Positions 4,739 through 62,189 of a stretch of DNA of 64,000 nucleotides are shown one piece after another; within the stretch, counting starts at the first letter, position 1, and each line of letters opens with the position of its first letter. Below the pieces are notes generated by a model that was given only the letters and a program-made list of their open reading frames with translations, ran no database searches and was not told where the DNA came from. The DNA is from a virus, in IMG/VR virus record IMGVR_UViG_3300045988_052681; one strand, written 5' to 3'. The position numbers were made by a program, and so were the translations under genes.

Positions 4739-4959
4739 GAAACCTCAATATCAACAGTACTAATATCAACATCTCCTAAGCTACTAAGTGCGGCTTGTAT
4801 TCTGCTCTTAATAGCTTCTATGGCTTCATCTATATCCAAATGTCCGTAATATTCATACCATGCTAATCCCTTAGCATTTATGTCAACTTTGAAGACTTTC
4901 TCTTCTACATTATAAGGAGCAAATGGGTCACGTTCTGCTCCAGCTGGTAAATTACTCAT
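4735..4959 (-). CDS. hypothetical protein
   Basis: ORF overlaps polymerase start by 4 nt (operon coupling). Confidence 0.4.
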   Translation of the reverse strand: MSNLPAGAERDPFAPYNVEEKVFKVDINAKGLAWYEYYGHLDIDEAIEAIKSRIQAALSSLGDVDISTVDIEVS

Positions 4960-5019
4960 TAATTAATAGCTGTTAGAATTAATAATAAGTAATCTGTCCA
5001 CAGACCTCGTCACCGAGTC

Positions 5020-7853: not shown

Positions 7854-8630
7854 TCATTTCTCGTTAGTTGGCTTAAGCCATAAATTGGTCTTACTAAAGA
7901 TATAATCTCTAAGTCTTGGAAGGTAATCAAGATATGTTAAGGTTCTAATGGTATTGCATCTAAAACACTTAATCAGTTCCTCTCTAATTCTCTCCTCTGA
8001 CACTACTGGCATTTTAGAATCATAATCATATAACACCATAGCTTGCCAAGTTGTTTGCTCTATTGTGAATCTCTTAGTAACCGCAAACCTAATGGCTCTA
8101 AGTATCCTAAGAGGGTCATCATCGAATGTTGTTACAGGGTCGAGGGGAGTTCTTATCAAAGCATTCGTTATATCATGCTTACCATAAAAGTAGTCAATGA
8201 TTTCTCCAGTATCAGGGTCTTTAGCCATAGCATTAACAGTGAAATCTCTACGTGATAAATCATCATACAAGTTACCTGGTTCTACTATGGGAGTTCTAGT
8301 GCCTGGGACATATCCTACTTCCTTTCTAGCCATTACGAAGTCTGCCACACCTTGATACTTGTATCCTTCTGGGAACTTAGCACGTATAGTATAGCAATCT
8401 GGAGTTACTAAGAAGATTTCAAAGCCTTCTTTCCTCAAATGACTTTCTAACATAGTGAAGACTGCGTTAGCAGTATTTGGATAGATTCCGTCCACCAAAC
8501 ATTGTGCTTCCTCTATGTTACGCAGTAACTCCTCACTGGGTACAGCTACATAATCAACATCCTTATTGGTAAGACCTAGGAGTTCATCTCTAATCTTACC
8601 GCCTACTTCATAAAATTTAAAATCTTCCAT
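7854..8630 (-). CDS. class II nucleotidyltransferase (CCA-adding enzyme / poly(A) polymerase head domain)
   Basis: VGGKIRDELLG...KDVDYVA (GGxVRD + DxD) and RRDFTVNAMA motifs of CCA-adding enzymes; 258 aa minimal head-neck. Confidence 0.65.
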   Translation of the reverse strand: MEDFKFYEVGGKIRDELLGLTNKDVDYVAVPSEELLRNIEEAQCLVDGIYPNTANAVFTMLESHLRKEGFEIFLVTPDCYTIRAKFPEGYKYQGVADFVMARKEVGYVPGTRTPIVEPGNLYDDLSRRDFTVNAMAKDPDTGEIIDYFYGKHDITNALIRTPLDPVTTFDDDPLRILRAIRFAVTKRFTIEQTTWQAMVLYDYDSKMPVVSEERIREELIKCFRCNTIRTLTYLDYLPRLRDYIFSKTNLWLKPTNEK

Positions 8631-9587
8631 TAATAAAAATAATCTGATTCAACTTTCTGAATAATCTTCTCTCTGCTTCCTTTTAGACTATAGCCACTAC
8701 GTTCGTAACAACTAAAGTATTCTAAAACTTCATGTACTAAAAGATTAAAACTATGATTCTCGAAGTGATGCCCATCCACATCAATAGACCAACCACATCC
8801 ATCTAACCACCTATACACATTTAGATGCTTACCATTAACATGGTTTGGAAGGTTTGCTAATAGTGACAGATTATCCATTCTCTAATATTATAACAATTTA
8901 CCAGTCATACACACAACCGATTACTTGCTTCTCTTTAACGAACTCATATAGTTCATTAATAGCTTCATCCCACGTTAGGTCAGGAAATTGGGCATACTGT
9001 GATACATTACCATCTTCATCCTTGAAATCGGCTATGTCTAAGTAGTTCATATACTTGATTGTTGAATATCTGTCAAAGTAATCATAGCTTTCCAGGAAAG
9101 CAGGAAGTTCTATCCAAGGAGCTACTGGTAATAAATCATAGACAGTCAGCAGGTCAAGAGCTACCTCCTTAGAGATAGCTCCTTCATCTGCCTTCTTAAA
9201 TATTTCTTTAGCGAACTCAGCCTTGAACTGGTTCAATTTCTCCTTCATCGACTCTAGAGTCCGAATTTCTTTGTCTAAGTCTTCCATCATATATTAATAT
9301 GAGTTTATCAAATTCTTCATCTGTTCCTTCATAAGGAGTAATTTTATAGTTGTAGTAATCTTCCCACTCGATACTATCAACTACCTGTCTTATAGCTTCT
9401 TCAGTCATGTTATGATATTCATAACCTTCTGTAGTAACTATAAACGAATCTGGAACTATACCAACTGCGATTTCGAAAGCATATGCATCAGCTGCATTGT
9501 TCATGTCTTCATCAAACAAGCTCTCTGCGTATGCAGCATATCCACTATATGTTTCGAAATCATTAATGCAAGTTATAATATACCTGT

Positions 9588-10976
9588 TCATTGGTCAGAT
9601 TCTATATCAACTTCACCTTTATCTAATGCTTTAGATTCTGCAAATAAGAATCTATTACATTTTAACTTATATGCCCCAGATAGACCGTCTTCTATACGAA
9701 TCACTATACCTTCATGCGGCACATCATTGTGACATTCCGGAGATAGTTCTTCCATGAAGAAATTCTTGTCCTCGGCTAATCTTTGTATGAAATTCTCATT
9801 CCAGTGTTCAGATATAGATATATCCGGATATAAATCCTTCGCATATCCATAATACAGTTCTGTTACCGGAGTGAGGCCCTTATCTTTACACCATTGTTGC
9901 ACTTGTCTAGCACTAAATTCATACACTATTCCGTCAGGATTAGTATAAGTAATACGGTACACTCTGATACCAAAATGCACATTATACTTATATGGAGTAG
10001 TTTGAGTAGTAGGGTCGTATATTGGCATATCGTAACCATAATCATAAGCTTTACCTCCCATTGACTGAATTGCTCCTCCAGTAGGAAGCCAGCCTATAAT
10101 TTCATAATAGAGAGTTAATCCTTTAGTTAGAAATGGCTGTAATACTTTATGAGCTTCTCCCCACACATCACAGCCATAGTAACCCTCACTAACTTCCTTA
10201 TTATAATATTGGTTCTTTACAACCTTTCTAGAGGACCACAGATAGTCATATGCAGTGTCAGGCACATAGGTAAGCCAACCAGCTACCTTGTCTTTCCACT
10301 TCAATTGCCTTTTGCATAACACATCTGCTGATATTCCAGACGTGCCATGAACTTTACTAGTAATACTAATAATGTCCTTTGGCTTAATTATCCATGGACA
10401 CTTCTTAATAAGAATAGTATCGTAGTGGAATCTAAACTGATTGTCAACTAACTTGCTCAACCCTTTAGGCTGTTTACCAGTTCTAGTTTTATTACTAGAG
10501 CCAGAAGTTCTATTCTTTACTACGTACTTCTTACAAATAAACAGGTTTCCTACCCTATCAAATTCAATGCCGGCATCTATTCCAGTTACAGCTTCGGTAT
10601 GTCCAAGAGAGCTTATCCATTTAGTAATGGACTCTATAGACATAATAAATCCTTCTGAAACATGGCCCTGCAACTTAATAATCTTCACTCTTCCGTTATC
10701 TTCGAAATACCCAGGTGCTGCTTCCTTGTCAGCATTCAGCTCAATGTGTCTGAACTGGTTATTAGCTGACAAGAAAGAATAGTCAATAGCACATCCTATA
10801 GGGAAATACACATACATTCCAGGTTCTGTATCTTTACTAACCGAAATAGTATATCCGTCTATATGAGCACATTTAAGACGCTCGCACTTAGGGTTTGGGT
10901 GTGGTGTAAAATCGTGGATTTCCACAATCTTAGCACAATAGTTAATATTGATTTTAGGTGATTGATTTAATTGCAT
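9588..10976 (-). CDS. ATP-dependent RNA ligase (Rnl2/Rnl5-like nucleotidyltransferase domain with N-terminal extension)
   Basis: Motif I SKVHGTSG (KxHGxx), motif III YYEIIGW, motif IV HEGIVIRIEDG (EGxVxR), motif V AYKLK. Confidence 0.6.
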   Translation of the reverse strand: MQLNQSPKININYCAKIVEIHDFTPHPNPKCERLKCAHIDGYTISVSKDTEPGMYVYFPIGCAIDYSFLSANNQFRHIELNADKEAAPGYFEDNGRVKIIKLQGHVSEGFIMSIESITKWISSLGHTEAVTGIDAGIEFDRVGNLFICKKYVVKNRTSGSSNKTRTGKQPKGLSKLVDNQFRFHYDTILIKKCPWIIKPKDIISITSKVHGTSGISADVLCKRQLKWKDKVAGWLTYVPDTAYDYLWSSRKVVKNQYYNKEVSEGYYGCDVWGEAHKVLQPFLTKGLTLYYEIIGWLPTGGAIQSMGGKAYDYGYDMPIYDPTTQTTPYKYNVHFGIRVYRITYTNPDGIVYEFSARQVQQWCKDKGLTPVTELYYGYAKDLYPDISISEHWNENFIQRLAEDKNFFMEELSPECHNDVPHEGIVIRIEDGLSGAYKLKCNRFLFAESKALDKGEVDIESDQ

Positions 10977-11968
10977 TCAAAACTAGTCAATAATTGCTTA
11001 CAGCTAATCTTCAGCTAGACTCCAATCTTGACTTAAAACGGCATCAGGAAACCACTTAGTAACAACGTAGTACTGGTTAGAACCAGATATAGGAAGACAG
11101 ATGATATTGCCTTCCTTCATTCTGTAACGTCTCTTACTTAAGTTGATAACTGTCATACCTGCTCTCATCATAGATAGAGCTTCTCCAAAGTCAAATGTCT
11201 CGTTCATAATCTTATAAATTAAAATTAAACAATCTTGTAGGATGATTCAACATATTCGTAAAGCTCATCCAATGTGCTTATAATTTCTTTACCCTCTTCG
11301 TCATAGGCTTTTATATCTGGGTCTCCGGCTTTCTCGTAAACCCACCACATAATCCAGTCTATGCCTTCGTCAGTATAGTTCTCTTTAAATATAGCCATGG
11401 CTATACATTCAGCATTACTGACTATATCACTGTCAGCAATATCAATTCCCATTTCAGACAATTTGAAACATCTGGAGTTGATAGCTTCCAATGAATTTAC
11501 TACTTCTATAAAGTTCCCTTTTACCATATTACACCTTTTAATTGTTCTTGAATTTCATTAATAGTCTCACTGTCATAACCTCTAAGAAGGTCTCTATAGA
11601 AATCAAATACAGTTTCATATAGCTGACTTTTATCCTCCTCTGATAGAGTGTTCCCTACCAGAGAAGTCAATAAGTCTGCCACCTTAGCGCTTATAGATAT
11701 TGAAGTTTTGTTAATCACAGATACATCAATGCGTTAGATAGTATTTTAATTAACTCTGCATCAGAGAAATCATCTACATTTAATAGTGTTTCTCTAATAA
11801 CAAAGACATCATCATCTGGTTGATAATGCTTCCGCATAATATCAATCACATCATCTTCATTCCTAATTAATGTACTTCTTTTATATGCAACGTCTGATTC
11901 GTCGCGATATTTAAAGAACTCCATTTTAGGTTCGCCTTGCTGCCTATATACTACAATGTAATTCATAC

Positions 11969-13177
11969 TTATTCATAGTCTCGGATGCACTTAAGTACTG
12001 GTTGTAATGGTCTGCCATCGTCAGAGTAGTAGAAATACTTAACAGTAGCCATTTTACCGATAAGTTCATCCATTCTGTCTAGATATTCATACTTAAGTTC
12101 TCTAGGTCCCATAGGCTTGGCTTCAAATTCCTTACCAGCCTGAGTCTTACATATGAACACCATATCTTCAGGACGTAATCCGTCACTATAGCCAACAATC
12201 TCGAACTCGTCGTCTTGATACATTTTGACTTTAATCATGGCATTAGTACGTCCTCCATAGTTATATGGTTTGTCCGGGTCTCTAATAACTATACCTTCAA
12301 ACCCTTCGCTGACATATTTATCATGAAGCTTCTGAATGTTAGTCCACCCTACTACTTCCTCTTCTGGAACTATTCTAACCTTCAGGTCATCTTCATTCCA
12401 ATTAGCATTAGGGTCAAAATCCACAATTCCAAGTATAGGAGCTATTTCGTCAGATATATAATTCCACCTTTCCTGTGCTGTCATATTAGCATCCATGGTA
12501 TCATAGATGTAATATTCCAATTCATTGCAGCGGGATTCTCCAGATTCTAATCTTGCTGTACCACTTATATACTGCAAGCTTCGACCGTGAATGTAAAGTT
12601 CACCATCGAGAACCAAATCTGGCATCTTATTAAATAACTCTATCATCTTGGGATGTGTTCTTAGGTGTACTGTAGAAGCGTCATAATCACCACCTCCCCG
12701 ACTAGCAGATACTATCTCTCCGTCCTTTAGATAGAAAGAACATCTGACACCGTCTATCTTACGAGAACCTAGCCAGTACTTGATTTTATCAAATACCTTA
12801 GTAGCTACCTCCTCGTACTTCTTGGCTTTCATATGCTTCTTAAATCCATTTGAATCAGTAACACCCTCACCTAGGTGTTCTTCAACAAATGCTGCAACTG
12901 CCTTCGCATCCTCTATGTTAACAGAGGATGGAAGTAGCTTATAACCCTTATCTGTATACTTCTTTAGATGAGAATTGTACTCTAACTTAGCCTGTTCTGC
13001 AACAGTCCTTTTGGCTTTGCCTTGGAATATCCATATCTCTGGCTGCACAGTTACTTTGCCACCATACTGATAAGTCTTTCTTCTTATAACAAAGCCATGT
13101 TGGGCATCATCCCATTCGCAACTAATCTCGACTACTCTAGTTTTACCCTTGTTGTCTTTAGTTACTAATTTATCCAT
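11969..13177 (-). CDS. ATP-dependent DNA ligase
   Basis: Motif I KIDGVR (KxDGxR), motif III LVLDGELY, motif IV EGIVIRD, motif V IKVKMY. Confidence 0.75.
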   Translation of the reverse strand: MDKLVTKDNKGKTRVVEISCEWDDAQHGFVIRRKTYQYGGKVTVQPEIWIFQGKAKRTVAEQAKLEYNSHLKKYTDKGYKLLPSSVNIEDAKAVAAFVEEHLGEGVTDSNGFKKHMKAKKYEEVATKVFDKIKYWLGSRKIDGVRCSFYLKDGEIVSASRGGGDYDASTVHLRTHPKMIELFNKMPDLVLDGELYIHGRSLQYISGTARLESGESRCNELEYYIYDTMDANMTAQERWNYISDEIAPILGIVDFDPNANWNEDDLKVRIVPEEEVVGWTNIQKLHDKYVSEGFEGIVIRDPDKPYNYGGRTNAMIKVKMYQDDEFEIVGYSDGLRPEDMVFICKTQAGKEFEAKPMGPRELKYEYLDRMDELIGKMATVKYFYYSDDGRPLQPVLKCIRDYE

Positions 13178-13339
13178 TTAAGATTTCAAAAGCCCTCATT
13201 GCACCTTCGATATAATCTGCGGCAATTGCTTCCACTGCATCGTCATGTTCATCTGCATCACACACGCAAGATTTAGCATACTGTTCAGCGTCTTTCTCAA
13301 TGGTTTCTACAAATTCTTCGTAATTCATAATTTGTTGTT

Positions 13340-13561
13340 TTATACGTCAGTGTCTAAATCATCTACAGTTAAAGGCTTATTACACTCTTGAATAAGGTTT
13401 CTAGCCAATTCATCCTGTTTAGCTTTCAATTCCTTAATCTTCTCCATAGTCTCACTCATCGCCTTCGCATGATTAGCATAGGCATTATTAAGTGTCTGGA
13501 TTTCCAATCCTATGTCGGATATGGCTTTACTCTTCTCGATTACTTCTACTGTACTTATCAT
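13340..13561 (-). CDS. hypothetical coiled-coil protein
   Basis: 73-aa ORF, heptad-like charged pattern. Confidence 0.35.
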   Translation of the reverse strand: MISTVEVIEKSKAISDIGLEIQTLNNAYANHAKAMSETMEKIKELKAKQDELARNLIQECNKPLTVDDLDTDV

Positions 13562-13743
13562 TTCTCACCGGTATGCCCAAATCCACCTTTACGCTCTGTT
13601 TCATCTAATCTAGCAACTTCTTCCCATTCTGCCACACAAGCCCATCCAAATACTAATTGGGCAATACGTTCTCCATCTTCAATGTACACTGCTTCGTGTC
13701 CTTGGTTAATGACTATTATACCAATTTCGTTTCTGTAGTCCAA
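13558..13743 (-). CDS. dut: dUTPase, C-terminal segment (rest of motif III, motifs IV-V)
   Basis: Begins DYRNEIGIIVIN (completes GxIDxDYRG); ends RKGGFGHTG (motif V); ORF track initiates at a TTG codon. Confidence 0.75.
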   Translation of the reverse strand: MDYRNEIGIIVINQGHEAVYIEDGERIAQLVFGWACVAEWEEVARLDETERKGGFGHTGEK

Positions 13744-14621
13744 ATTTGTTATCGTTAGGCTTTTTATCCTAACTTCTTATACTTCTAATTTAATATAAGT
13801 TCCGCGTACCTATTCACTATCACAGGTCGGGCACTCTTGGAAGGATTATATTTATTCACCTTCTACGCTGTACGATGGTTCAGAGCCTTTCGTAATCTCT
13901 GAACTTATCTCGGGATTAGCATCACAGCCTTCCCCGATATTGCCCGATTTAACGACGCCGACACATTTAGAATGATTGTGGTGTATAGTATGTTCTGACC
14001 TAGTAAGAATCTCAAGGTTCTCTATTCTATTATCCTTCTTATCCTCGTTTATATGATGTACATCATATTCAGGCTTAAGTACCTTCCACCCATCGATGAA
14101 CTCGAAATAAGCTTCGTCAAATCTATCAGAATTTCTTTCAACGACAAGTCTGTGTTGCAGAACTCTAGTAGTTTGATTACTTCTGTCATGAGGATATGGA
14201 TGTCCTGGACAATATTCTAATAAATAGCCGTAACTAGTCACTAACTCAGAATTTTTAAAGGAAGCATTTTTATCACCAACTAACCCATATTGGTGGTTAC
14301 CATCTTCCTTCATATATTCTGACTTTAGCTTATATGAACATTCTAAACTACACGTTATTCCATTCTTAACTCTCTTTAATCTACTTGGCTTGAGATACAT
14401 CTCCCTGCCACAAATTACACATTTACAATTTGGGGTTTTGTTGAACTTCTGCCACTCTTCGTAACATTTATAGGAACAGAAGGTTTTGGGAAATTTCTTA
14501 GTATCTACTGGATAATTCTCTTTACCACAAACTATACATTTACACATAATTAATACTTATTATTGTTAATATACAAAGGTAATGAATTTCCTGGAACAGA
14601 CCAAATCTCCAGGTACAATTA
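13744..14621 (-). mobile_element. intervening sequence in dut carrying HNH endonuclease (probable self-splicing intron; boundaries approximate)
   Basis: A single conserved dUTPase motif is split across two ORFs by ~880 nt that encodes an HNH HEG; inverted repeat GGTACAATT/AATTGTACC pairs exon 1 with the downstream sequence (P1-like). No canonical group I core seen. Confidence 0.45.
13852..14547 (-). CDS. HNH homing endonuclease inserted within dut
   Basis: N-terminal CxxC zinc pairs; C-terminal HHINEDKKDNRIENLEILTRSEHTIHHNH HNH motif. Confidence 0.8.
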   Translation of the reverse strand: MCKCIVCGKENYPVDTKKFPKTFCSYKCYEEWQKFNKTPNCKCVICGREMYLKPSRLKRVKNGITCSLECSYKLKSEYMKEDGNHQYGLVGDKNASFKNSELVTSYGYLLEYCPGHPYPHDRSNQTTRVLQHRLVVERNSDRFDEAYFEFIDGWKVLKPEYDVHHINEDKKDNRIENLEILTRSEHTIHHNHSKCVGVVKSGNIGEGCDANPEISSEITKGSEPSYSVEGE

Positions 14622-14981
14622 TTAATTATTAAATTCAGCGTCGATTGTACCTGGAGTGTTAAGTATAGTAATTCCCTTCTTTAAAGCTAAGCCACTCCTA
14701 GGTCTTACTTGGCACTCATAAATAAACTCACAGTCTTGGTCAGTAACTGGAAGAGCAATCTTTAATCCAGTCGGAATAAGTGCCCTAGCACCTGGGTCAA
14801 GACGAAGCATTGTAACCTTGTTAATATCGGATTTAAAAAGAATTTCACAATCCCCGAATGCTTTAATAGGATTATCAACTGTTACTCTACTGAAGTCTGC
14901 ACGTATATCCATACCTGCTGACGTAGGAGTTTCATACTGGGGAAGTTTGTTATTCGATAGATTAATTACTTGAACTTTCAT
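14622..14981 (-). CDS. dut: dUTPase, N-terminal segment (motifs I-III), interrupted
   Basis: AGMDIRA (motif I), [12 protein letters not shown] (motif II), GTIDAEF (start of motif III GxIDxDYRG), then stop. Confidence 0.75.
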
Positions 14982-17248: not shown

Positions 17249-17826
17249 AGTTCTCTATTCCAAAATCTAAAGGTAATATCCTTTAATTTAGGACCGTCAT
17301 CAGTCATTATCGTTTTATATAATCTCTGATTGGTATTTGGATTATCAAGTGGTCCACATTCCTCTATGTAAGGTCCTAACTTGATGTAATCGAAATTGTA
17401 CAAATCAATTTCATCTGCCAATGTAGCTCTACCACTATACCACCCAATCTTTATATCAAGTGGTACTGTTTGCTGCCATTCCATTTCTGTTTCGGCAGGA
17501 ATGGATACTTTGGGAAACCTAATTTCCTTATGAATAGTAAACTTATCAGCCGTTTTAGTGGTAGTTAACGTCCTTACTAATCCAGCATAGTGATTAATGA
17601 GCTTAGGGTCGTTATCGCCACCCATAAAGCAAATGGCAGTAATTCCCTTATTCTCATTAATAAGCTTCTCTATTCTAGTAATAGTCAGGACTTCCCCAAC
17701 GTCTCCTGCCAAGTAAGAGCTATGACAGCCGTTGCAGTGACATGGACAATTAGATATGTTTATGGCTAGTGTAGTCTCGTCAGGAATTTCCCTGAAGACT
17801 ATATCGAAACCTACATATTTAAGCAT
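17245..17826 (-). CDS. nrdG: anaerobic ribonucleotide reductase activating protein NrdG (radical SAM)
   Basis: CPCHCNGC = CxxxCxxC radical-SAM cluster motif near the N-terminus; immediately downstream of nrdD. Confidence 0.7.
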   Translation of the reverse strand: MLKYVGFDIVFREIPDETTLAINISNCPCHCNGCHSSYLAGDVGEVLTITRIEKLINENKGITAICFMGGDNDPKLINHYAGLVRTLTTTKTADKFTIHKEIRFPKVSIPAETEMEWQQTVPLDIKIGWYSGRATLADEIDLYNFDYIKLGPYIEECGPLDNPNTNQRLYKTIMTDDGPKLKDITFRFWNREL

Positions 17827-18097
17827 GAGTATAAAATCTTCTACTAGCTTCCTCTTGCCTTGCTTGGCTAAAGTTACTAATACGTTTCAAATAACCAATA
17901 ACTCTAGTAGCATAATCAACGTTCTTACTCCCACATTTTGGACATTCCTTAAGATACCTTTTATCAATATGTCCACAATCATTACAAATAGTATTTGGAA
18001 TATTAAATGTGAAATAATTAGTACCATTGACTGCTGCCACTCTCAACAAGTTACGATACTGTTCCTTACTAAGATGTTCATCGAGATTCATATGCAA
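17819..18097 (-). CDS. nrdD: anaerobic RNR NrdD, exon 2 (zinc ribbon + glycyl radical motif)
   Basis: CNDCGH...CPKCGS zinc ribbon followed by RVIGYL glycyl-radical motif, which is the C-terminus of class III RNR. Confidence 0.75.
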   Translation of the reverse strand: MHMNLDEHLSKEQYRNLLRVAAVNGTNYFTFNIPNTICNDCGHIDKRYLKECPKCGSKNVDYATRVIGYLKRISNFSQARQEEASRRFYTHA

Positions 18098-19158
18098 AGC
18101 TGAACCCGTGTTTCTCTAATGTTTCCATTAGCACTGACTATATCTTAACGGAATAACTTCCGCAATATCCATTTCAAACAGCGTACCAATAGCCGTCTTA
18201 CTCCTCCGATTCGAGGATAGTCGATACAGGATTATAATTATTGATGTCAACCTCGTTACCATTTAATAACCAGATTCTTTTGATTTTACTATAGATTGGA
18301 AGATGCTTATATGAGTTTGCTATCAGACTTCTAAAGCTGTCTTTGGATTTGCTTCTACTACCGTACTTCTCATAAGTTTCTGATAGAGTGTGGTTAACGT
18401 AATACTTACGTATCTCTAATACTTCTTCATCAGAATATATAGCATTACCATTCAAACTTCCAGGATTACTCTTTTGAGTACTATGATGCAATTTATTAGA
18501 TTCTGTGTAGATTTCCGGCATTATAGACTGCCACGTAACACCTTCCCAAATCTTTTGAAATGCCGAGTAGGAAATTCTATCTTCAAACAATTTCCAACAT
18601 TCCCTACATCTAAGCTCCCCATAAGAATAAATTTCTCTTATCTGAACTACATCTGACACCTTAAGTCTGGTTCTAGGGTTAGCATCTAGCTGATTGGATT
18701 CTCCACCTGCTGTAATATTATATCCCTTGTCTGGATTTTGAGAATCATACAGTTGTATATAATATCTCTCTAACCTTCCCAGTTCCTTAAAGTCTTCGGT
18801 ATTGTCAATTTCTTCTATAGTAAAATTCTCAAGACCGTATTTACGCATAGATTTATACAAATGCCTATTACAAGTCTTGCTATCTTGTTTGTGTTTACAC
18901 CATCTATTGCATAATGTGGTGGTAGTCAGACCCACATATACTTTACCATTAACAGTGTTAGTAATTTTATAGATTATCATAATTAGTGATTTTCTACAAA
19001 CTTACTAATTTAAATGGAGATGAGCAACACATACACCATAATTAATTTCCCACGGGATTACCATACATTTAGTTATCACAACTCAAGCTTCAGGCTTCCC
19101 CGTTAGCATAGTATTAATACCATACCCGTCTGGTTAGACGTAAAGATATAACAGGCGA
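18098..19158 (-). mobile_element. group I intron in nrdD carrying a GIY-YIG homing endonuclease gene
   Basis: Minus-strand P7 strands GACUA (18218-18222) and UAGUC within the conserved S element AAGATATAGTC (18136-18146); the HEG ORF end overlaps the core; the intron splits an otherwise contiguous NrdD. Confidence 0.75.
18198..18980 (-). CDS. GIY-YIG homing endonuclease (I-TevI-like)
   Basis: N-terminal IYKITNTVNGKVYVGLTT...R...H...YGLENF = GIY-YIG module; DNA-binding-like C-terminal domain. Confidence 0.85.
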   Translation of the reverse strand: MIIYKITNTVNGKVYVGLTTTTLCNRWCKHKQDSKTCNRHLYKSMRKYGLENFTIEEIDNTEDFKELGRLERYYIQLYDSQNPDKGYNITAGGESNQLDANPRTRLKVSDVVQIREIYSYGELRCRECWKLFEDRISYSAFQKIWEGVTWQSIMPEIYTESNKLHHSTQKSNPGSLNGNAIYSDEEVLEIRKYYVNHTLSETYEKYGSRSKSKDSFRSLIANSYKHLPIYSKIKRIWLLNGNEVDINNYNPVSTILESEE

Positions 19159-20943
19159 TTATTCACCATCAAGATACTTGATATAATCTTTGCCATGCAG
19201 TTTAAATTTATCAAGTATTGTCAAAGAAGTATCTTCTACAGCATAGAAATAACTATTATAGCAATCTCTAGGAACTACATAACCCGCTTTCCTGTCCCAA
19301 TTAGCATGTTTAACTCCCAGGTTCTCCGCTGGCACAAACTCACAGTTAAACATCAATTCTTTGGTCTTAGCCTTACGATTCTCATCACTGATAGTCTTAA
19401 GAATAGATTGCATAAACTCTCTATAAGTTGGATTATCATTAACTGGGATTCCTAAGAACTCCGCAGCCTCAATAACTCCATTAACACCTATAGTCAAATA
19501 CTGCTTCTTCATATCAATGAATCCAGCTGTATATACAGTAAGCAACCCGTCTTTTAAATAGTCTTTAAGCAATTCATTATATGCTGTTTGGAACTTATGA
19601 ACTTTCTTCACATTCTCACGCAAATACTCAATCATATCATACCCATTATTAACTGCATCCTGAACTAGCCTATTGATATTTAAGGTCATTACTGACTTAC
19701 TACCAGTAGCAATACCACCAGCTCCAAGAGAATAACTGAATTGATTATCAGTAACCTCATTACGAAGTCTGCAACAGGAAGATAAGGAATCAGGACTATC
19801 GGACATATAAGTAAAGAACGAGTGTCCTTTGCTATACATCTCTGCTGTAAAGTCTGCATACTCTTCATCAACAACATCCTCTCCGTTAGTTAGAAGCGCC
19901 ATGGTCTCAACAGGGAATGTAAGAATACACTTAGTACGTTCCTCATTAAACCATTTAGCAAATTTCTTCTGCAACCAACTAAGAGATTCCCATTGAGGTT
20001 GTGTACCGTCTGGGAAATAGAACTCTCCAAAGATACCTTCAAAGTAGTTCTTATCAAAATAACTGATATTCCAGAATACTGATTGGAAGTTACGAGCAGC
20101 TGCTGGCTGATTGATTGAATATACAATCTGCTGGAACTTCTGCTCTAACGTCTTGTCAATATTTCTGTGTTTGTCAACCATTTCCTCTGGACGTTTCCAG
20201 TAATCATCACCCCACTCTTTACGAGCAAAGTAATCAAAGTACATTAGAAACTCTCCAGTTGCTACTGCACCTGCAAATTGAGAACTAATCGCAAATACCA
20301 GATTAACGAACATGCCACAGAAAGAATCCAGGTTCTTGGGTCTGGCAGACAAACCTCCAATTGGCTGTAACCCCTCCAATAGAAAGGGATACATAGTGAT
20401 AGCCACGCAGTAGGGCATAATCGATGTTTCATCATGCTTATAAAGTAAATGTTGTTCCAGCATACGGATATATTCCTTAGCTAACTCCTCTCCATATAAC
20501 TCTCTGATTTTATCAGTAAGAATTGCACGATTTACCTTAATAACATCACCTTTGAACAATTCTCCATTTAAGGTTACAATGTTCTTCTCGGTAACATTAG
20601 CATTAGCATCGTATTTACTACCAGTTGCGGCATTCTTGGCTTTAGCATAGTCTTTAATGAATTGTTTCTTTTCATTTAAAGCCCTGCTCTCTGCCCTTTT
20701 ACGCCTGTACAAGATGAATGCCTTAGCAACATCATAATAATCACATGCCATAAGAGCTTTCTCTAACTGGTCTTGAAGCTCCTCAACTGAAACTATGTTG
20801 TTAATATACAACTCATCTTTAATATCCTGAAGAATATCAGAATCAATTGGCTCGTTAACAGCGTTAAATGCCTTAGTAATTGCGGCATCAATCTTATTAA
20901 CGTCGAAAGGTTCTACTTTTTTGTCTCTCTTAATTACTAACAT
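19159..20943 (-). CDS. nrdD: anaerobic ribonucleoside-triphosphate reductase NrdD, exon 1 (ends in intron-encoded stop)
   Basis: N-terminal ATP cone (VIKRDKKVEPFDVNKI); 594 aa class III RNR body lacking the C-terminal Gly-radical domain, which is found in exon 2. Confidence 0.85.
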   Translation of the reverse strand: MLVIKRDKKVEPFDVNKIDAAITKAFNAVNEPIDSDILQDIKDELYINNIVSVEELQDQLEKALMACDYYDVAKAFILYRRKRAESRALNEKKQFIKDYAKAKNAATGSKYDANANVTEKNIVTLNGELFKGDVIKVNRAILTDKIRELYGEELAKEYIRMLEQHLLYKHDETSIMPYCVAITMYPFLLEGLQPIGGLSARPKNLDSFCGMFVNLVFAISSQFAGAVATGEFLMYFDYFARKEWGDDYWKRPEEMVDKHRNIDKTLEQKFQQIVYSINQPAAARNFQSVFWNISYFDKNYFEGIFGEFYFPDGTQPQWESLSWLQKKFAKWFNEERTKCILTFPVETMALLTNGEDVVDEEYADFTAEMYSKGHSFFTYMSDSPDSLSSCCRLRNEVTDNQFSYSLGAGGIATGSKSVMTLNINRLVQDAVNNGYDMIEYLRENVKKVHKFQTAYNELLKDYLKDGLLTVYTAGFIDMKKQYLTIGVNGVIEAAEFLGIPVNDNPTYREFMQSILKTISDENRKAKTKELMFNCEFVPAENLGVKHANWDRKAGYVVPRDCYNSYFYAVEDTSLTILDKFKLHGKDYIKYLDGE

Positions 20944-51276: not shown

Positions 51277-51748
51277 ATCAATCTCTTACTAAGTCTATCC
51301 AATTAATTAGGATATGATACAACCACCTCATAATACGTAATCGCAATAAGTGTCAACAAAATCCTTAGCTTCTTTTAAACCACATTTAGCAGATTCTTTT
51401 ACATGCTTAACTGCTTGCAGTTTGGAACCAGTCTGTACAAACTGTTTCATCTTAAAGAAGTCTTCACATGACAAATCAATTGTATTATTCCAACGCTTCC
51501 TGTATGCAAGCATTGCATCACTATACTCTTGAGGATGTTCTGTCCAGGTAATTTGTTGGTCTAATATAACTGTACAAGTTCCATCAAGTATATCATATTC
51601 TCTAGATTCTACGGTGAATTTACCAGCTTCTAACACTACTATATCAGTAGGAAATGGAATCATCTCTGGTGAGATTGATACCTCTTGTACTACTTTATCA
51701 TCTTTTACAAATTTTACAAACATAATCTTTAAGTATTAATTAATAATG

Positions 51749-53360: not shown

Positions 53361-54818
53361 TTATTTGTTGTCCTTCTTCTCCGTAGAATAGTCCTTACGG
53401 TCAAGTTCCCACTCATACTCACACATCTGAGTAATTGCTTCAAGCTTCTCTGTACCCAGAACGAGTTTGAGAGCATTTACCAATCTTTCAGCCGGAGTTT
53501 CCACAACAGCTTTCTTGGATGCGAGTCCAAGTTGACGTTGATAAGATTCAACGCTAGCTTTGATATGGAACGATGTTACATGGGTTTCTTCTGTAAAGAT
53601 GAGTTTGGATTTGGTTGATTCAACGATTTCAGCCATAAATGCCGGAGCAATTTCAGCTTCTTGAATGTAGTTACATACTTCACTCAAATCATCGTCGATT
53701 GTATATCCTTCTTCAGCGGTGAAGGTAGAACGGATGAATTTCTCCGCAGTTTCAGCGTCCAGACAGTCCATGGTAATCACAGAACCAATTCTCTTACCTC
53801 TCAAGAAGGTAGGTTCAATCAATTCAATGTGATTAGTAGTGAACAAGGTGATTACGTTCATGTCTTTGGTATCACCACCGTCCAGAGTATTCAGGATGTC
53901 TTGCATAGCAGCATCTCTGTTACCTCTAGTTACTTGGTCAATATCTTCAACAAATACGACAACACCATGGCCCGAACGGTCAACAACTTTACACATGCGC
54001 AGAGTTTCTGCAAGAAGAGAAGGATTCTTCAAATACACGAACGACCAACCGTTTGTTACAGCATCTTTAGCCAGCTTAAATGCCAGCAAGGTCTTACCTG
54101 TACCATATTTACCTTCCAGCAAACAACCATACTTCAATGGAATACCTTTAGCCAGACATTTCTCTGGATACAAGATTCTTGAGCGTAGCGGTTGCAATTC
54201 AAATTCAGTCTTCTTAGAAAGAACCATGAATTGTTTCTCAATGCCGGCAAGTGTCATGATAGTAGGTTCAGACAGATTGCTGATTTCCAAAGCCTGGTTT
54301 TTGTAGATAGATTCTGATGCCAACAGCTCTTTAGTTCTGTCAACAATATCATCAATCAATGACTGGTATTTGAACTGGCATTGTCCTTTAATAAGGAGCA
54401 AATGACGGTCATTGTCATAGTTGATGTTGATTTCAGAATCTTCTCCCAATTCTTCAAGGCTGATTTTACCAAACGGAACCTTGGTACGAGAACCGTCTGC
54501 CAGAACAACGTCTACGGTATCAATGTTGCTGTTTCCAGAAGGACTGTTATCCTCCTTACTAACGGCAGAACCGAAGATTTCATTGATTGCTCTGTTCAAC
54601 TGATATACACCGTCTGGTTTCCAACAAAGCAGCGAGTATTTGAAACTTGCCATTTTCTTGGACTGTTTGATTTCACCTTCGATGAATCCCAGAGCATCAG
54701 CATACTTCACATTGCTTTGGAGCACTTCAATCATTCTCTGTTTCTGAGTTTCCTCGTACTTGTTAACTCTCTGCTTAATAGCAGCTGTAGTTCCTTGCGG
54801 AATAATGTTCTTTGCCAT
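53361..54818 (-). CDS. AAA+ ATPase (classical AAA clade) with N-terminal unknown domain
   Basis: Walker A GKYGTGKTLLA, Walker B VVVFVEDIDQ, sensor-1 TTNH, second region of homology with FLRGKRIG arginine fingers. Confidence 0.8.
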   Translation of the reverse strand: MAKNIIPQGTTAAIKQRVNKYEETQKQRMIEVLQSNVKYADALGFIEGEIKQSKKMASFKYSLLCWKPDGVYQLNRAINEIFGSAVSKEDNSPSGNSNIDTVDVVLADGSRTKVPFGKISLEELGEDSEININYDNDRHLLLIKGQCQFKYQSLIDDIVDRTKELLASESIYKNQALEISNLSEPTIMTLAGIEKQFMVLSKKTEFELQPLRSRILYPEKCLAKGIPLKYGCLLEGKYGTGKTLLAFKLAKDAVTNGWSFVYLKNPSLLAETLRMCKVVDRSGHGVVVFVEDIDQVTRGNRDAAMQDILNTLDGGDTKDMNVITLFTTNHIELIEPTFLRGKRIGSVITMDCLDAETAEKFIRSTFTAEEGYTIDDDLSEVCNYIQEAEIAPAFMAEIVESTKSKLIFTEETHVTSFHIKASVESYQRQLGLASKKAVVETPAERLVNALKLVLGTEKLEAITQMCEYEWELDRKDYSTEKKDNK

Positions 54819-55369: not shown

Positions 55370-56437
55370 CTAAACTAACTTATCGAATATCATGGGTTGT
55401 ATTGACATCCATAAATTCGCTAGCATTTCTTGCTCTGCGTCAGATGCTTCATCCCAATGTGATACGTACAATTTCTCCGTTCGTTCATTCCTATAAGGAA
55501 CTTTAAATGAACGGTTAATGTGTACACTGTGTGCGAATAGGTCTTTGTCGAAATCAATAGCCCTAAGCGTCTTCTGGAAATCGTTGAACTTATTATTAGG
55601 GTCATCGACATCCCTAACAGACATTCCAGAAGGAAATGGGCCGTTACCATGCCTTGTTATATAAGGACGAGTTACATAACAAGTTTGGATTTCTTTACGT
55701 ATGCCTGCTTTCCGCAACAGCTCGTAAGCGTTTTGTGAAGTTGTATTAGACGGAGTGCAATAAGGCATTATGCCGAATCTTTGGTCAAGCAATATTCCCT
55801 GTGAACCTTCAAACACTAGGTTGTCATAGTTTAACAAGCAATCTTCATTAACCGTACCTGTATGTAAGAAATAAGCATGTGCTAACCTACACCAGTTGTC
55901 TAGGTCTATCGAGGGATATTTACTAGACATGTTGTAATAGTTATCCACTATGGCATTTAATTTCTCACGTAGTATGTAAGGATTCATACAATCTACAACT
56001 GTTAAGCTGTATCCTGCCTTAACTCGGTCCAAACAAGCTTTAAACCCTGTACCTACAGTACCATGTCGTAAGTTCTCTTCGTTATTAACTTGGGAATAGA
56101 CATCGAAGGGAATTACAACTTGGCAGTGAGGGTGATACTGAACAATGGGACGAACTCCCATTTTAGCTAAGTCTGCACCCTCTAACATAGAGGTAATTGG
56201 GTCTACAGTACAGTATTCGGACCAATACGTCGGCACTCCAAGTAAGGTTCCGCTGCCAAAGTTACTAAAGGTGTGCATCATGTCTCCATGCTTTACAGTA
56301 TGTCCTACTTGATGTCCACCACTAAACCTGACTACTAATACAGACTCTCGCTTACCTATGTACTTGTTACATAAGTTGTGAACTGTCTGTCCCTTACCTT
56401 CGTCTCCAAAGAATGTTCCTAATACAATACTAATCAT
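55370..56437 (-). CDS. adenylosuccinate synthetase family protein, short C-terminally truncated form (PurA/PurZ-like)
   Basis: N-terminal VLGTFFGDEGKGQ P-loop, GGHQVGHT, GTVGTGFKA, FEGSQGILLD, PYCTPSNTT and GNGPFPS align with PurA landmarks; 355 aa, whereas PurA is ~430 aa; the TTGRRRR and KxD guanine-specificity elements are not evident. Confidence 0.7.
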   Translation of the reverse strand: MISIVLGTFFGDEGKGQTVHNLCNKYIGKRESVLVVRFSGGHQVGHTVKHGDMMHTFSNFGSGTLLGVPTYWSEYCTVDPITSMLEGADLAKMGVRPIVQYHPHCQVVIPFDVYSQVNNEENLRHGTVGTGFKACLDRVKAGYSLTVVDCMNPYILREKLNAIVDNYYNMSSKYPSIDLDNWCRLAHAYFLHTGTVNEDCLLNYDNLVFEGSQGILLDQRFGIMPYCTPSNTTSQNAYELLRKAGIRKEIQTCYVTRPYITRHGNGPFPSGMSVRDVDDPNNKFNDFQKTLRAIDFDKDLFAHSVHINRSFKVPYRNERTEKLYVSHWDEASDAEQEMLANLWMSIQPMIFDKLV

Positions 56438-56443
56438 TTCAGT

Positions 56444-57376
56444 TTAATAAAATTTGTCATTACTATCAGACGGCACATCTTGCCATTCTTGACTAACAGA
56501 AGCACTAGGAGCTAAACCTTCAGCAGGCTCCTCATAGTTCTCTTTAATTGCGGTGACAATCACCTTGTCTACTTCTCCAGATGCACATGTCAATACATTC
56601 TGTCCAAGTAAAGTCTTCCAAGATTCAGCAACCCTTGAGCCATGACTGGCATTAGTAATGTGAATGTGGAATACATGGTACTGTTCCTTTGCTTTGTCAA
56701 GAGCTTCTTGACAAGTAATGGTTTTAGCACCTTTTTGATATCCTAGAACACGTTCTAAGTAACACCCCTCTACCTTATCGAGATTTGGTTCATCTCCAAT
56801 AGTAAATAGGAATCCCTTAGTGTGTCTTTCAAACCAGGAATCAGTTTCAGTATGATAACCTGCCACAATATGAGCTAGTAGATAGCTTTCGCCTCTATTA
56901 CCTCCTCCTCCACCTTCAATCACGAACGATTGTAAAGTGTCAAGAATTTTAGCTGTATCAGACTCAAACTGCCCAATTTGAATTGGATATCGGTCATAAA
57001 CGTGGTCCCCAACTGCCATAAACATGATTTGTGGGTCACGTACACCTAGTTGAATGAGAGAGTCCATAATCTTAGGGAATTGGTCTCTAATCATTTCATA
57101 AGGTGTGTCCATCATTGAACCAGTAACGTCTAGCGCAATGATTATCGGAGTAGAGAAAGGATGTTCTTTAGAATCACGAGATTCACGAACACCCACGTTA
57201 ACCATTTCTTGCCTTATCTGCGTGTTATACTGCCTAACATTGTTGTTAAGCGATGCAGCAGTATTACATGCATTAATGGCATGGCTCTTAAAGAGTTCAT
57301 CCCTAGTGGAGGTATATAAACCCCTACTGCCGGCCTCTACATCATAAGCAATTCTAGAATAACTACCTGCTCCCAT
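56444..57376 (-). CDS. von Willebrand factor A (vWA) domain protein
   Basis: MIDAS motif IIIALDVTGSM (DxTGS) plus downstream T/D residues; 310 aa. Confidence 0.7.
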   Translation of the reverse strand: MGAGSYSRIAYDVEAGSRGLYTSTRDELFKSHAINACNTAASLNNNVRQYNTQIRQEMVNVGVRESRDSKEHPFSTPIIIALDVTGSMMDTPYEMIRDQFPKIMDSLIQLGVRDPQIMFMAVGDHVYDRYPIQIGQFESDTAKILDTLQSFVIEGGGGGNRGESYLLAHIVAGYHTETDSWFERHTKGFLFTIGDEPNLDKVEGCYLERVLGYQKGAKTITCQEALDKAKEQYHVFHIHITNASHGSRVAESWKTLLGQNVLTCASGEVDKVIVTAIKENYEEPAEGLAPSASVSQEWQDVPSDSNDKFY

Positions 57377-57379
57377 AAA

Positions 57380-57748
57380 TTATTCATTTACAGTTGCAGC
57401 AGCGTCATCCAAATTAATGGATTCTGATGCATCAGCGGGAAATTCTTCTGCATCGACTTGCATAGCTAGAGCAAGTTCAATCTTTGCAACACGCAGTTTA
57501 CGTGCTAATTCATGTCTTGTTCTTACCCATTCAGCCGGATTCAGTCCTTCTCCCGGATTCAAAGAGTCTCTTGATTTAACAGCCAGGTCATTGTGTTTGT
57601 TGATTTCTCCCTGAATGCGGAGTACTTTCAATTTACAATCCTGAACAAATCTGTCTTCCTCGATTTTAGCCAATTCATACAGATTCTGCGCTCTTGCATC
57701 AAGTACACTTTGTCCACTCTTACTTAATTTCTCTTTAAAACTGCTCAT
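57380..57748 (-). CDS. hypothetical coiled-coil protein
   Basis: 122-aa ORF, 4-nt spacing from the vWA gene. Confidence 0.4.
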   Translation of the reverse strand: MSSFKEKLSKSGQSVLDARAQNLYELAKIEEDRFVQDCKLKVLRIQGEINKHNDLAVKSRDSLNPGEGLNPAEWVRTRHELARKLRVAKIELALAMQVDAEEFPADASESINLDDAAATVNE

Positions 57749-60227: not shown

Positions 60228-62189
60228 TTACTTTACAGGAGGAAAATTATCACCTTTAGCTGGTGATTCTTCTGGCTTCTTGCCAGTGATTATTTGCTTA
60301 AGCGAATCTGCAATAGGCAAATTACGGGCAATCTCCAAGCTAGGAGCAAGATTCTTAGCCATATTAGCCATGAACTGTCCAGCAGTGTTGGAATCACCAT
60401 ACACAGTAACATTACCAAGCTGGATATGTTCAAATACCTTAGCGTTGGCTTCAGCAACTTCCTTCCACCTGTCGGTCATTGCATATTGAACGATTGCTTC
60501 AGGATGCATACCTGATTTAATCATATGTTCAACTGCAAGAGCCGGAGCCATTTCCATTGCCTGTTTCTGTTCAGCTTCTGCCATTAAAGATGCTTTCTTA
60601 CCTTCAGCTTCAGCAAGAAGTTTCTTCTTGGTACCTTCAGCTTCTGCTTCCAGTTGCATCTTAGTAGCATTTGCTTTAGCTTCTGCTGCTTTCAAGATTT
60701 TAGCTGCTTCCGCTTCTGCTTCAAGAATGGCTACACTCTTAACAGCTTCTGCTTCAATTTTAGCTTTCTCTTTGGCTTTCTCGGCAGGTATAATTACTTC
60801 AGCTTTAAGCTTAGCTTCTTCAGCTTTAGCTTTAGCTTCGTTAACTTCCACCTGACGTTCTTGCTCTGTTTTAGCAACTGCCATTTGAGCTTCAACTTTA
60901 GAAGTACCAGCTACTCTTTCTGCTTCAGCTTTAGCTTTCTCTGCTTCTCCCTTAGCTTTGGAAACTTCAATAGTAGCCTTCTGTTCAGCTACTCCTGCTG
61001 CTTTCTCTGCTTCAGCTGCCTTTTGACGGGCTTCTGATTCATACTGTGCAGTTTTAGCTTCCTTTTCCTGCTGTGCTTTAACAGTTTCAGCTTCTTGGTT
61101 TTGTGCTGCTACTGCCATACGAACTTCCTTCTCTGCTTCTGCTTCTGCCTTAGCGGCTTCAGCTTTGGCAGTAAATTCTGCTTCTTTAGCAGTTGCATAA
61201 GCTTGCTGCTCTGCAATCTTGGCAGCTCTCAATGCTTCTTGCTCGGCAACTTTGGAAGCTTCTTCAGTTTGGGCTGTAGCCACACCAATTTCACGTTCCT
61301 TTCTTTGCTCTGCAACAGCAATTTGTTGTTCCTTATGCTGCTCGGCCAATTGAGTTTCTTTCTCTTTAGTGGTCTTAGCAATAGCAACTTCTTTCTCCCT
61401 GTTAGTTTCAGCCACTATAGTTTCTTGCTCCTTAGTAGCTGCTGCAATTGCAATCTCCTTCTCTCTCGTAGTTTGAGCTATCTGGATTGCTCCTTTCTTC
61501 TCTTCTTCTGCGATATCAGCTTGTGATTGCGCTCTTGCTTTAGTCTCTTCTTTCTTACCAAGATTATCAATATATTGAGCAGCATCTTGAATGTCACTGA
61601 TATTGATATTCATCAGATAAAGACCAAGTTTGTTCAATTCCGTATTGATATTGTCTCTAGCTTGAGCTAGGAACTTGTCTCTGTCAGAGTTAAGCTCTTC
61701 AATAGTCATCGAAGCAATAACAAGCCTCATCTGACCATAAACAATATCTGAAATCAAACTTTCTTTAACGTCATCATCAGCACCTAGTAAGCGATTAGCA
61801 GCATTCTGCATAATCAGCGGTTCTTGGCTAATAGCAACAGTTACAGTGGTAGGGATAGTTACACGAATATTTTGAGCTGACAAAGCATTCTTCAATACAA
61901 GATTCAATTGAATCGGTTGCATTGACATTACTTCATAACCCTGTATAATCGGCCATACAAAAGCTGCACCACCATGATAAACCTTGGCAGTTTTAATTTC
62001 AACTTCTCTGTCAACCAGATTACCTTTAGCGTCGCGTTCGCTAACTTTCTCTTTGTGAGAGCCTGTTTTACCATAAACTACCAACAATTCGTCAGATTTA
62101 CATTTACGGTAGCGGGATAGAATCCCAATGATAGTGATGATTGCAACTAGTACAACTACACCAACGATAATTAATGATGTCATTTCCAT
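60228..62189 (-). CDS. SPFH/band-7 flotillin-like protein (YqiK/FloT type)
   Basis: N-terminal TM helix, then SPFH domain, then ~300-aa Ala/Glu/Lys-rich coiled coil (AEAEKE…, EAKAKAEEAKLKAE…); architecture of bacterial flotillins. Confidence 0.75.
   Translation of the reverse strand: MEMTSLIIVGVVVLVAIITIIGILSRYRKCKSDELLVVYGKTGSHKEKVSERDAKGNLVDREVEIKTAKVYHGGAAFVWPIIQGYEVMSMQPIQLNLVLKNALSAQNIRVTIPTTVTVAISQEPLIMQNAANRLLGADDDVKESLISDIVYGQMRLVIASMTIEELNSDRDKFLAQARDNINTELNKLGLYLMNINISDIQDAAQYIDNLGKKEETKARAQSQADIAEEEKKGAIQIAQTTREKEIAIAAATKEQETIVAETNREKEVAIAKTTKEKETQLAEQHKEQQIAVAEQRKEREIGVATAQTEEASKVAEQEALRAAKIAEQQAYATAKEAEFTAKAEAAKAEAEAEKEVRMAVAAQNQEAETVKAQQEKEAKTAQYESEARQKAAEAEKAAGVAEQKATIEVSKAKGEAEKAKAEAERVAGTSKVEAQMAVAKTEQERQVEVNEAKAKAEEAKLKAEVIIPAEKAKEKAKIEAEAVKSVAILEAEAEAAKILKAAEAKANATKMQLEAEAEGTKKKLLAEAEGKKASLMAEAEQKQAMEMAPALAVEHMIKSGMHPEAIVQYAMTDRWKEVAEANAKVFEHIQLGNVTVYGDSNTAGQFMANMAKNLAPSLEIARNLPIADSLKQIITGKKPEESPAKGDNFPPVK

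Follow-up and report, generated by a model that had tools for sequence, protein, structure and literature searches.

A PurA-like protein locked to a vWA partner in phages and bacteria represents a third branch of the PurA superfamily, with a possible role in NAD+/ADP-ribose-related nucleotide metabolism

A three-gene cassette in phages and bacteria

A gene for a 355-residue protein of the PurA (adenylosuccinate synthetase) superfamily lies on the minus strand, at 55370..56437, of the virus record IMGVR_UViG_3300045988_052681; the window referred to throughout is the whole 64,000-nucleotide stretch of this virus that was analyzed. A preliminary description, made from the sequence alone, had recognized a PurA-family enzyme in a phage, and this was right. 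The Pfam family PF00709 (adenylosuccinate synthetase) matched the protein with 120.6 bits (E 9e-35), over profile positions 1-277 of 416 only, and the AlphaFold model (pLDDT 93.2, pTM 0.92) has the PurA fold. Among solved structures, Foldseek retrieved bacterial PurA first (E ~1e-21), followed by PurZ0 (7VF6) at rank 20 and PurZ (7ODX, 6FM1) from rank 34, after all the bacterial PurA entries. The motifs quoted in that description were all confirmed, namely GDEGKGQ (residues 11-17), GGHQVGHT (40-47), GTVGTG (126-131), FEGSQG (209-214) and PYCTPSNTT (225-233). The protein is also, as had been noted, shorter than cellular PurA, by 77 residues relative to the 432-residue Escherichia coli enzyme, and the TTGRRRR aspartate loop is gone, with FQKTLR in its place in the alignment. 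The reported loss of the KxD guanine motif held only in part: His327 takes the place of the Lys, but the Asp is still there as D329, in an SHWD stretch that aligns with TKLD of E. coli and just ahead of which a predicted strand ends, as in PurA. Megablast of the region against GenBank phages gave no match.

The PurA-like gene is the last of three closely spaced genes on the same strand. It is preceded by the gene for a 310-residue vWA partner with a metal-ion-dependent adhesion site (MIDAS; 56444..57376, minus strand), with 6 nt between its stop codon and the PurA-like start, and the partner gene is in turn preceded by the gene for a small protein of 122 residues (57380..57748, minus strand), whose stop codon lies 3 nt before the partner start. 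The partner matches phrog_2971 (unknown function); it matched no Pfam family and, by sequence, no solved structure, and in its model (pLDDT 88) it adopts a vWA fold, in which the MIDAS is intact (D83-x-T85-x-S87, T192 and D195). Among 190 partner homologues the D-x-T-x-S motif is essentially invariant, and some 40 other positions show conservation of 93% or more; 187 of these proteins begin with Met-Gly, followed by an aromatic residue at position 6. In the window the cassette is flanked by genes for tRNA-Thr and tRNA-Gln.

In phages and bacteria alike, the PurA-like gene essentially always adjoins a vWA partner. Relatives of the PurA-like protein were found in 359 genomes by a scan of one genome per GTDB species, mostly in Bacteroidota and also in Hahella, Moraxellaceae and Omnitrophota, and a partner homologue lies directly upstream, on the same strand, in 80/80 retrieved bacterial loci. 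The same arrangement was observed in the mycobacteriophage Bxz1 (gp248), Rhizobium phage RHph_TM2_3B, Vibrio phage TDDLMA and three distant metagenomic phage contigs; beyond the pair, comparison of these phage loci revealed no other nearby gene in common. The phage carriers in GenBank comprise about 200 Mycobacterium cluster C phages together with Rhizobium and Vibrio phages, and the counts of the two genes of the pair match, at 220 versus 238 records (201/202 for Mycobacterium, 10/10 for Rhizobium and 6/6 for Vibrio). In the gut-phage contigs no annotated partner accompanies the cassette, whose neighbors are all unannotated genes.

The third gene, before the partner, encodes either a protein of about 111-122 residues (53 bacterial loci, 16 genera) or a Hanks-type kinase-like protein of about 300 residues, the latter in Bxz1 (gp247), Actinobacteria, Dyadobacter and Saprospiraceae. 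The 122-residue protein of the window has weak homology to the small gene of about 111 residues upstream of the bacterial partner (best blastp E 2e-5, collinear), and it probably belongs to the cassette as its third component, judging from this similarity.

Several side observations concern the components of the cassette. In the kinase-like component (gp247 family; L106:4937-5911, L107:4840-5889 and L008:1529-2659), the N-terminal YRELVGALHPDR stretch resembles the HPD motif of J-domains. The partner gene is interrupted in several phages, being split into two open reading frames (ORFs) in some and carrying an annotated HNH endonuclease under the match in others (L017:5891-7993, L102:8775-9985 and the Mycobacterium phages Quasimodo and CharlieB), so that mobile elements appear to target this conserved gene.

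A separate clade with remodeled substrate pockets

The curated equivalog models for PurA scored the window protein far below their cutoffs (NF002223, 100.7 bits against 402; TIGR00184, 92.4 bits against 395.55). In a neighbour-joining tree of 40 sequences (359 columns, 100 bootstraps), the window protein formed a clade with 100% bootstrap support together with its metagenomic and bacterial relatives, Bxz1 gp250 and the Rhizobium and Vibrio phage proteins; the five cellular PurA sequences grouped at 94%, and PurZ with PurZ0 at 100%. The family is a third branch of the PurA superfamily, apart from both cellular PurA and PurZ/PurZ0, and is very large, with 1,327 cluster representatives (clustering at 50% identity) at E <=1e-30. 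A published tree of 767 sequences contains, by the counts given with it, about 365 mostly viral sequences outside both the PurA and the PurZ group, which are undiscussed there (PMC12884076). Of the results that the preliminary description had named as speaking against its reading, neither a branching inside ordinary bacterial PurA, which it had coupled with virion DNA of canonical A only, nor a substitution of the key P-loop Asp or His was seen: the clade is separate, and D12 and H46 are kept.

E. coli PurA (PDB 1CG0, 1ADE) has the same fold as the window protein (Foldseek E ~1e-20, TM ~0.7), although the two are only 24-27% identical. When its functional residues were mapped by sequence alignment onto 339 family members, those of catalysis and purine binding proved to be kept: G12 in 333/339, D13 in 334, K16 in 336, H41 and Q224 in 338 each, T239 in 337 and R305 in 304 (Lys in 31), while D333, which recognizes guanine, is kept in 279. 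In the window protein this phosphotransfer and purine core corresponds to D12, K15, H46, Q213, T228, R292 and D329. The ligands of the 5'-phosphate of inosine monophosphate (IMP) have changed, with T239 the only one of four that is kept: N38 is Gln in 334/339, T129 is Val or Cys in 323, and R143, which comes from the second subunit, has no counterpart in 322. V273, next to the ribose, is His in 338/339. In the aspartate pocket, T300 is aromatic across the family, T301 is Gln in 334/339, and R303 is variable (E, S, T or K). The window protein shows these family-specific substitutions as Q43, V128, H263, F287 and Q288, has no counterpart of R143, and reads F287, Q288, K289 and T290 along the aspartate loop.

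The changed positions other than T300 and R303 are invariant in all PurA and PurZ/PurZ0 sequences aligned, and Gln at N38, His at V273 and Gln at T301 (Q43, H263 and Q288 in the window) are a signature of the clade. Bxz1 gp250, annotated as a PurA-like adenylosuccinate synthetase in cluster C, has the same signature residues and belongs to the same clade, but it is only about 32% identical to the window protein, is longer (442 residues) and has the kinase-like gp247 rather than a 122-residue protein as third component. As judged from alignment, the guanine KxD motif has His or Cys where PurA has Lys but keeps its Asp, and the S414 contact region is missing; this Asp was assigned from MAFFT and predicted secondary structure because hhalign left the C-terminal 40 residues unaligned. 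Since the core residues are kept and the ligand positions are swapped family-wide, the machinery for phosphotransfer to a 6-oxopurine is preserved, whereas the 5'-phosphate and aspartate pockets are rebuilt in a conserved manner. This pattern fits the fallback of the preliminary description, a novel nucleotide-modifying enzyme.

The PurA-like protein is not PurZ

The preliminary description had favored a PurZ-type enzyme of the 2-aminoadenine (Z-base) pathway, which our results do not support. PurZ and PurZ0 (phiVC8, S-2L and Ghobes; PDB 6FM1, 7ODX, 7VF6) are also shortened, phage-borne members of the PurA superfamily, and PurZ0, like the PurA-like protein, keeps the guanine-specifying Asp. 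However, PurZ is defined by a Ser in place of PurA Asp13, and the S14D substitution abolishes its selectivity (bioRxiv 10.1101/2025.10.22.683976). This Ser is found in 100% of 147 phage PurZ/PurZ0 (PMC12884076) and in 6/6 PurZ/PurZ0 references aligned here, whereas D12 in the GDEGKG P-loop of the PurA-like protein aligns with PurA D13. In addition, PurZ keeps N38, T129, R143, V273 and T301, all of which are changed in the PurA-like protein, and identity between them is 13-21%. The NCBIfam PurZ model NF038379 reached 22.1 bits against a cutoff of 300 and covered only residues 192-263, BLASTP against phiVC8 PurZ gave E 0.002 over 34 residues, and a sequence search of solved structures returned no PurZ entry among its matches. 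In the tree, the protein stood outside the PurZ and PurZ0 clade in 100/100 bootstraps, and tblastn of GenBank phages with a PurZ query and a PurA-like query retrieved almost non-overlapping phage sets.

Gene content points the same way. PurZ/PurZ0 genes cluster with a gene for a partner that removes dATP or dGTP (DatZ, MazZ, DUF550, DUF5664, DutZ or DmtZ), which is usually adjacent. The absence of a DatZ (HD) or MazZ (MazG) gene from the window, already noted in the preliminary description, was borne out: tblastn of DatZ, MazZ, DpoZ and PrimPol from phiVC8 and S-2L against the window gave nothing at E <1, and a Pfam scan of all minus-strand window ORFs of at least 60 residues revealed no HD, MazG, Nudix, DUF550, DUF5664 or NDT domain. 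These searches covered the 64-kb window, with about 110 kb of the phage genome lying outside it. A family A polymerase, which had been cited as a trait of Z-genome phages, is indeed encoded at 2600-4738 (Pfam), but as a pointer to a Z-genome it adds nothing, as it has only an 86-residue motif block (29%) in common with DpoZ. The dUTPase of the window was considered as a DutZ candidate and set aside, since all five canonical dUTPase motifs are present and the PurA-like protein had already proved not to be a PurZ0. Furthermore, hundreds of bacterial chromosomes carry the family in NAD/ADP-ribose operons, a setting in which an enzyme of DNA-base replacement would not be expected. The PurA-like enzyme very probably does not make 2-aminoadenine.

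The PurZ label is nevertheless attached to this family, as the protein matches PHROG 1211, which bears it. This label, '2-aminooxy adenylosuccinate synthetase', has spread from PurZ to proteins of cluster C mycobacteriophages and Vibrio phages that carry Asp13 and are not PurZ; examples are Bxz1 gp250 (L008:3980-5308) and many RefSeq phage records. Z-genomes could be wrongly inferred from such systematic misannotation.

Genomic context in NAD+ and ADP-ribose metabolism

Genomic context analyses connected the cassette with nicotinamide adenine dinucleotide (NAD+) and ADP-ribose. In Flavobacterium bizetiae, genes on the same strand form an operon in the order NrtR, a phosphoribosyl pyrophosphate (PRPP)-synthetase-family (Prs-like) protein, a microbial PARG, the cassette, NADAR, a fusion of Macro and ADP-ribosylglycohydrolase (ARH), Tpt1/KptA, a second ADP-ribosylglycohydrolase and a metallophosphoesterase. 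Its NrtR combines a Nudix domain with the NrtR winged helix, and the operon is preceded, on the same strand, by the gene of a LysR-type regulator. A Ter (tellurite-resistance) cluster, which multi-copy paralogues of about 185 residues in Flavobacterium had suggested, was rejected because Pfam gave NADAR, Tpt1 and ARH instead.

An NrtR homologue was observed at most 6 kb from the cassette in 38/80 loci, including 8/8 loci of Chryseobacterium, 24/32 of Flavobacterium, a metagenome-assembled genome of Bacteroidales and the gammaproteobacterium Hahella. With one representative per genus, the most recurrent neighbors of the cassette were NrtR, NADAR, the Prs-like protein and Tpt1. An actinobacterial operon of NrtR, kinase-like, vWA and PurA-like genes was present in 3/3 genomes (Verrucosispora, Micromonospora and Actinomadura), and the cassette adjoins nrtR in three bacterial phyla. 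In Flavobacteriia it is surrounded by ADP-ribose-processing genes, and its association with NAD+/ADP-ribose genes is strong there as well as in Hahella and Actinobacteria. NrtR represses NAD metabolism genes, and ADP-ribose detaches it from its DNA sites (PMC2330246). In Streptomyces, Frankia, Kineococcus, Proteus and Hahella the same study listed nrtX-nrtY, an operon that is regulated by NrtR but was left unexplained (PMC2330246); nrtX-nrtY may be the PurA-like/vWA cassette. A literature search on a link between PurA-like, vWA and NADAR proteins, on 'PurA-like' proteins and on nrtX/nrtY found no characterization.

Similar contexts were found in phages. Vibrio phage TDDLMA has a NADAR gene two genes upstream of the pair, and the Rhizobium phage has phosphoribosyltransferase-like and NMNAT/Nudix genes near it. 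For the virus analyzed here, the sister contig ENA ERZ18698263 NODE_26 is 98.5% identical to window positions 321-11541 over 11.2 kb and extends beyond window position 1, where it encodes in a row (L109:15276-20759) a nicotinamidase-like (PncA-like) protein, nicotinate phosphoribosyltransferase, NAD synthase (NadE), an NMNAT-like protein with a GSFDPPHIGH motif, a Nudix hydrolase and an AAA protein; two metallophosphoesterases are also encoded just past the left edge of the window. This cluster has the appearance of a full Preiss-Handler-type route of NAD+ salvage in a phage, and it differs from the published pathways NARP1 to NARP3.

Two groups of known systems resemble these contexts. NARP1, NARP2 and NARP3 are likewise small phage cassettes tied to NAD+/ADP-ribose, a likeness to the NrtR and Prs-like contexts of the bacterial relatives and to the NAD+ salvage genes of the phage species that lies in gene context only, as the NARP enzymes (Adps/Namat, NadV/NMNAT, PnuC/NadR) are unrelated to the cassette. 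ADP-ribose systems centred on ARG and regulated by NrtR or WYL have been predicted, with a Nudix transcription factor and a vWA 'chaperone' (Iyer et al., 2022; PMC9503650). The Flavobacterium operon fits these systems, with its Nudix transcription factor, ARG, Macro, NADAR, phosphatase and vWA 'chaperone'; that study, however, has zero mentions of 'adenylosuccinate' or 'PurA', whereas the vWA protein described here is strictly paired with a PurA-like enzyme.

Proposed function and alternative explanations

We propose that the PurA-like protein is a GTP-dependent purine-C6 ligase with altered substrates, which works in complex with its vWA partner in NAD+/ADP-ribose-related nucleotide metabolism, and we give this reading a probability of about 0.5. 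From the clade, the pairing, the residue pattern and the gene contexts described above, we infer that a hypoxanthine-type nucleotide would be phosphorylated on its 6-oxo group with GTP as donor, as the retained guanine-specifying Asp suggests, and that the phosphate would then be displaced by an amine other than free L-aspartate. The 5' end of the nucleotide would probably differ from that of IMP in not being a simple monophosphate. The vWA partner may be part of the active complex, possibly replacing the second PurA subunit that normally supplies R143. Altered purine substrates have a precedent in ToyG, the PurA homologue of toyocamycin biosynthesis, whose substrate is a 7-deazapurine nucleotide. 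The most likely role would lie in the economy of adenine nucleotides, NAD+ and ADP-ribose: in bacteria the cassette would be switched on when ADP-ribose accumulates, and in phages it may serve as a salvage or counter-defence module alongside genes of NAD+ reconstitution.

Several points weigh against this proposal. The substrates are deduced only from kept and changed PurA ligand positions, the residue map comes from MAFFT and hhalign sequence alignment, and the register of the aspartate loop differs by one position between the two aligners. R292 (equivalent to R305) and, in the sub-clade of the window, K289 could still hold a carboxylate, so that use of aspartate is possible. The outgroups of the tree are few, with five cellular PurA and no archaeal PurA, and the method was neighbour joining. 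The NAD/ADP-ribose neighborhood is a contextual association observed in only a subset of loci and lineages: there is no NrtR within 6 kb in the Dyadobacter or Saprospiraceae loci and no NAD-related gene adjoining the cassette in the window or the gut-phage contigs, and the NAD cluster of the phage lies about 60 kb from the cassette.

One alternative is an auxiliary metabolic gene for an ordinary adenylosuccinate synthetase, which would make adenylosuccinate out of IMP and aspartate with GTP and leave the completion of AMP to host PurB, raising adenylate for replication and for the rebuilding of NAD+. The PF00709 match, the conserved core residues (D12, K15, H46, Q213, T228, R292 and D329) and the bacterial PurA structures as best fold matches agree with this explanation, and AMP resynthesis would also benefit an NAD-salvage context. 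Nevertheless we regard it as unlikely, though worth keeping in view, because the protein reaches only about one quarter of the equivalog cutoff scores, lies in a separate clade and, apart from R303, which is not conserved in the family, has lost at N38, T129, R143 and T301 residues that are invariant both in PurA and in the aspartate-using PurZ. Moreover, the PurA reaction has no role for an obligate vWA partner, and the bacterial copies in accessory operons by nrtR look like extra paralogues, a housekeeping purA being presumed. A PurZ/PurZ0-type enzyme, which would convert dGMP and aspartate into a 2-aminoadenine precursor so that Z replaces A in phage DNA, is exceedingly unlikely; the shortened phage PurA homologue, the PHROG 1211 label and the presence of a family A polymerase and a dUTPase would suit it, but the P-loop Asp, the PurZ model score, the position in the tree, the lack of Z-pathway partners in the window, the only remotely DpoZ-like polymerase, the canonical dUTPase motifs and the commonness of the family in bacterial chromosomes all speak against it.

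It is also conceivable that the enzyme is directed at proteins, joining an activated purine nucleotide to a protein amine, either that of the invariant N-terminal glycine of the partner or that of a protein captured through the MIDAS, to give a covalent adduct for signaling or conflict. Such a ligase would be consistent with the loss of free-aspartate ligands from a conserved catalytic core, with the Met-Gly start, aromatic position 6 and intact MIDAS of the partner, with the obligate and tightly spaced gene pair and with kinase-like or small adaptor proteins as third component. It is rather improbable in our estimation, being purely inferential; the conserved N-terminus may have other causes, such as an interaction surface, and vWA domains are usually adaptors. 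A bolder version, to which we attach a slim chance, is a new conjugation or salvage machine of NAD+/ADP-ribose conflict, in which a GTP-activated purine or an ADP-ribose-derived nucleotide would be joined to a protein amine, for example that of the partner's N-terminal glycine; if true, this would be a chemistry of protein-nucleotide linkage not described before, common to bacteria (possibly under NrtR control) and large phages. Finally, the PurA fold may have been retained only as a nucleotide sensor, making the protein a non-catalytic, GTP-binding regulator or scaffold of the vWA protein. Two remodeled substrate pockets and the missing C-terminal guanine-contact segment (the S414 region) would be in keeping with this, but no fewer than 334/339 members retain each of the catalytic residues Asp, Lys, His and Gln, a degree of conservation that is hard to account for without catalysis and makes such a role very unlikely.

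The gene is widespread: several hundred sequenced phages, about 200 of them cluster C mycobacteriophages, and hundreds of bacterial species have it under the name 'adenylosuccinate synthetase', 'PurA-like' or, wrongly, PurZ-type, and the last label could prompt predictions of Z-genomes where none exist. The gene represents a very large separate branch of PurA with remodeled pockets, which is locked to a vWA protein and tied by context to NrtR and ADP-ribose-processing enzymes. As NAD+ depletion and reconstitution (NARP1 to NARP3) are central to current work on conflicts between phages and bacteria, a widespread module in this setting is a concrete experimental target, for which Bxz1 and Flavobacterium are tractable systems. 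In addition, the cassette may account for the nrtX-nrtY genes, which have been unexplained since 2008 (Rodionov, 2008).

Other features of the phage window

Downstream of the cassette, at 53361-54818 on the minus strand, lies a gene for a 485-residue AAA+ ATPase (phrog_10440), which is kept in close phage relatives. A role as MoxR-type partner of the vWA protein, within the cassette, was considered and rejected, as no homologue was found near the pair in any distant locus.

Two genes of nucleotide metabolism on the minus strand are split. The dUTPase gene (13558-14981) falls into two pieces, one for the N-terminal region (14622-14981) and one for the C-terminal region (13558-13743), on either side of an HNH endonuclease ORF (13852-14547); the interruption is probably a mobile intron that encodes a homing endonuclease. 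Similarly, the anaerobic ribonucleotide reductase NrdD consists of a main part (19159-20943) and a C-terminal piece with the zinc ribbon and glycyl radical (17819-18097), separated by a GIY-YIG endonuclease ORF (18198-18980), probably a second intron with a homing endonuclease. The presence of NrdD suggests an anaerobic host.

Fourteen tRNA genes are scattered among small ORFs between 41064 and 63197, all on the coding (minus) strand. A polynucleotide kinase-phosphatase (6303-7223), an enzyme of the CCA-adding/poly(A)-polymerase family (7854-8630) and an ATP-dependent ligase (11969-13177) are encoded near one another on the minus strand and look like a tRNA or RNA repair set. Pfam Ribosomal_L12 matched one small ORF (E 2e-5), assigned by sequence reading to the 131-residue ORF at 51328-51723 (minus strand), whose C-terminal GLKEAKDFV is typical of the C-terminal domain of ribosomal protein L7/L12. 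A 653-residue SPFH/Band-7 domain protein is encoded at 60228-62189 on the minus strand; the distant metagenomic contig L016 likewise encodes a Band-7 protein (13177-14025), a few kb away from its cassette.

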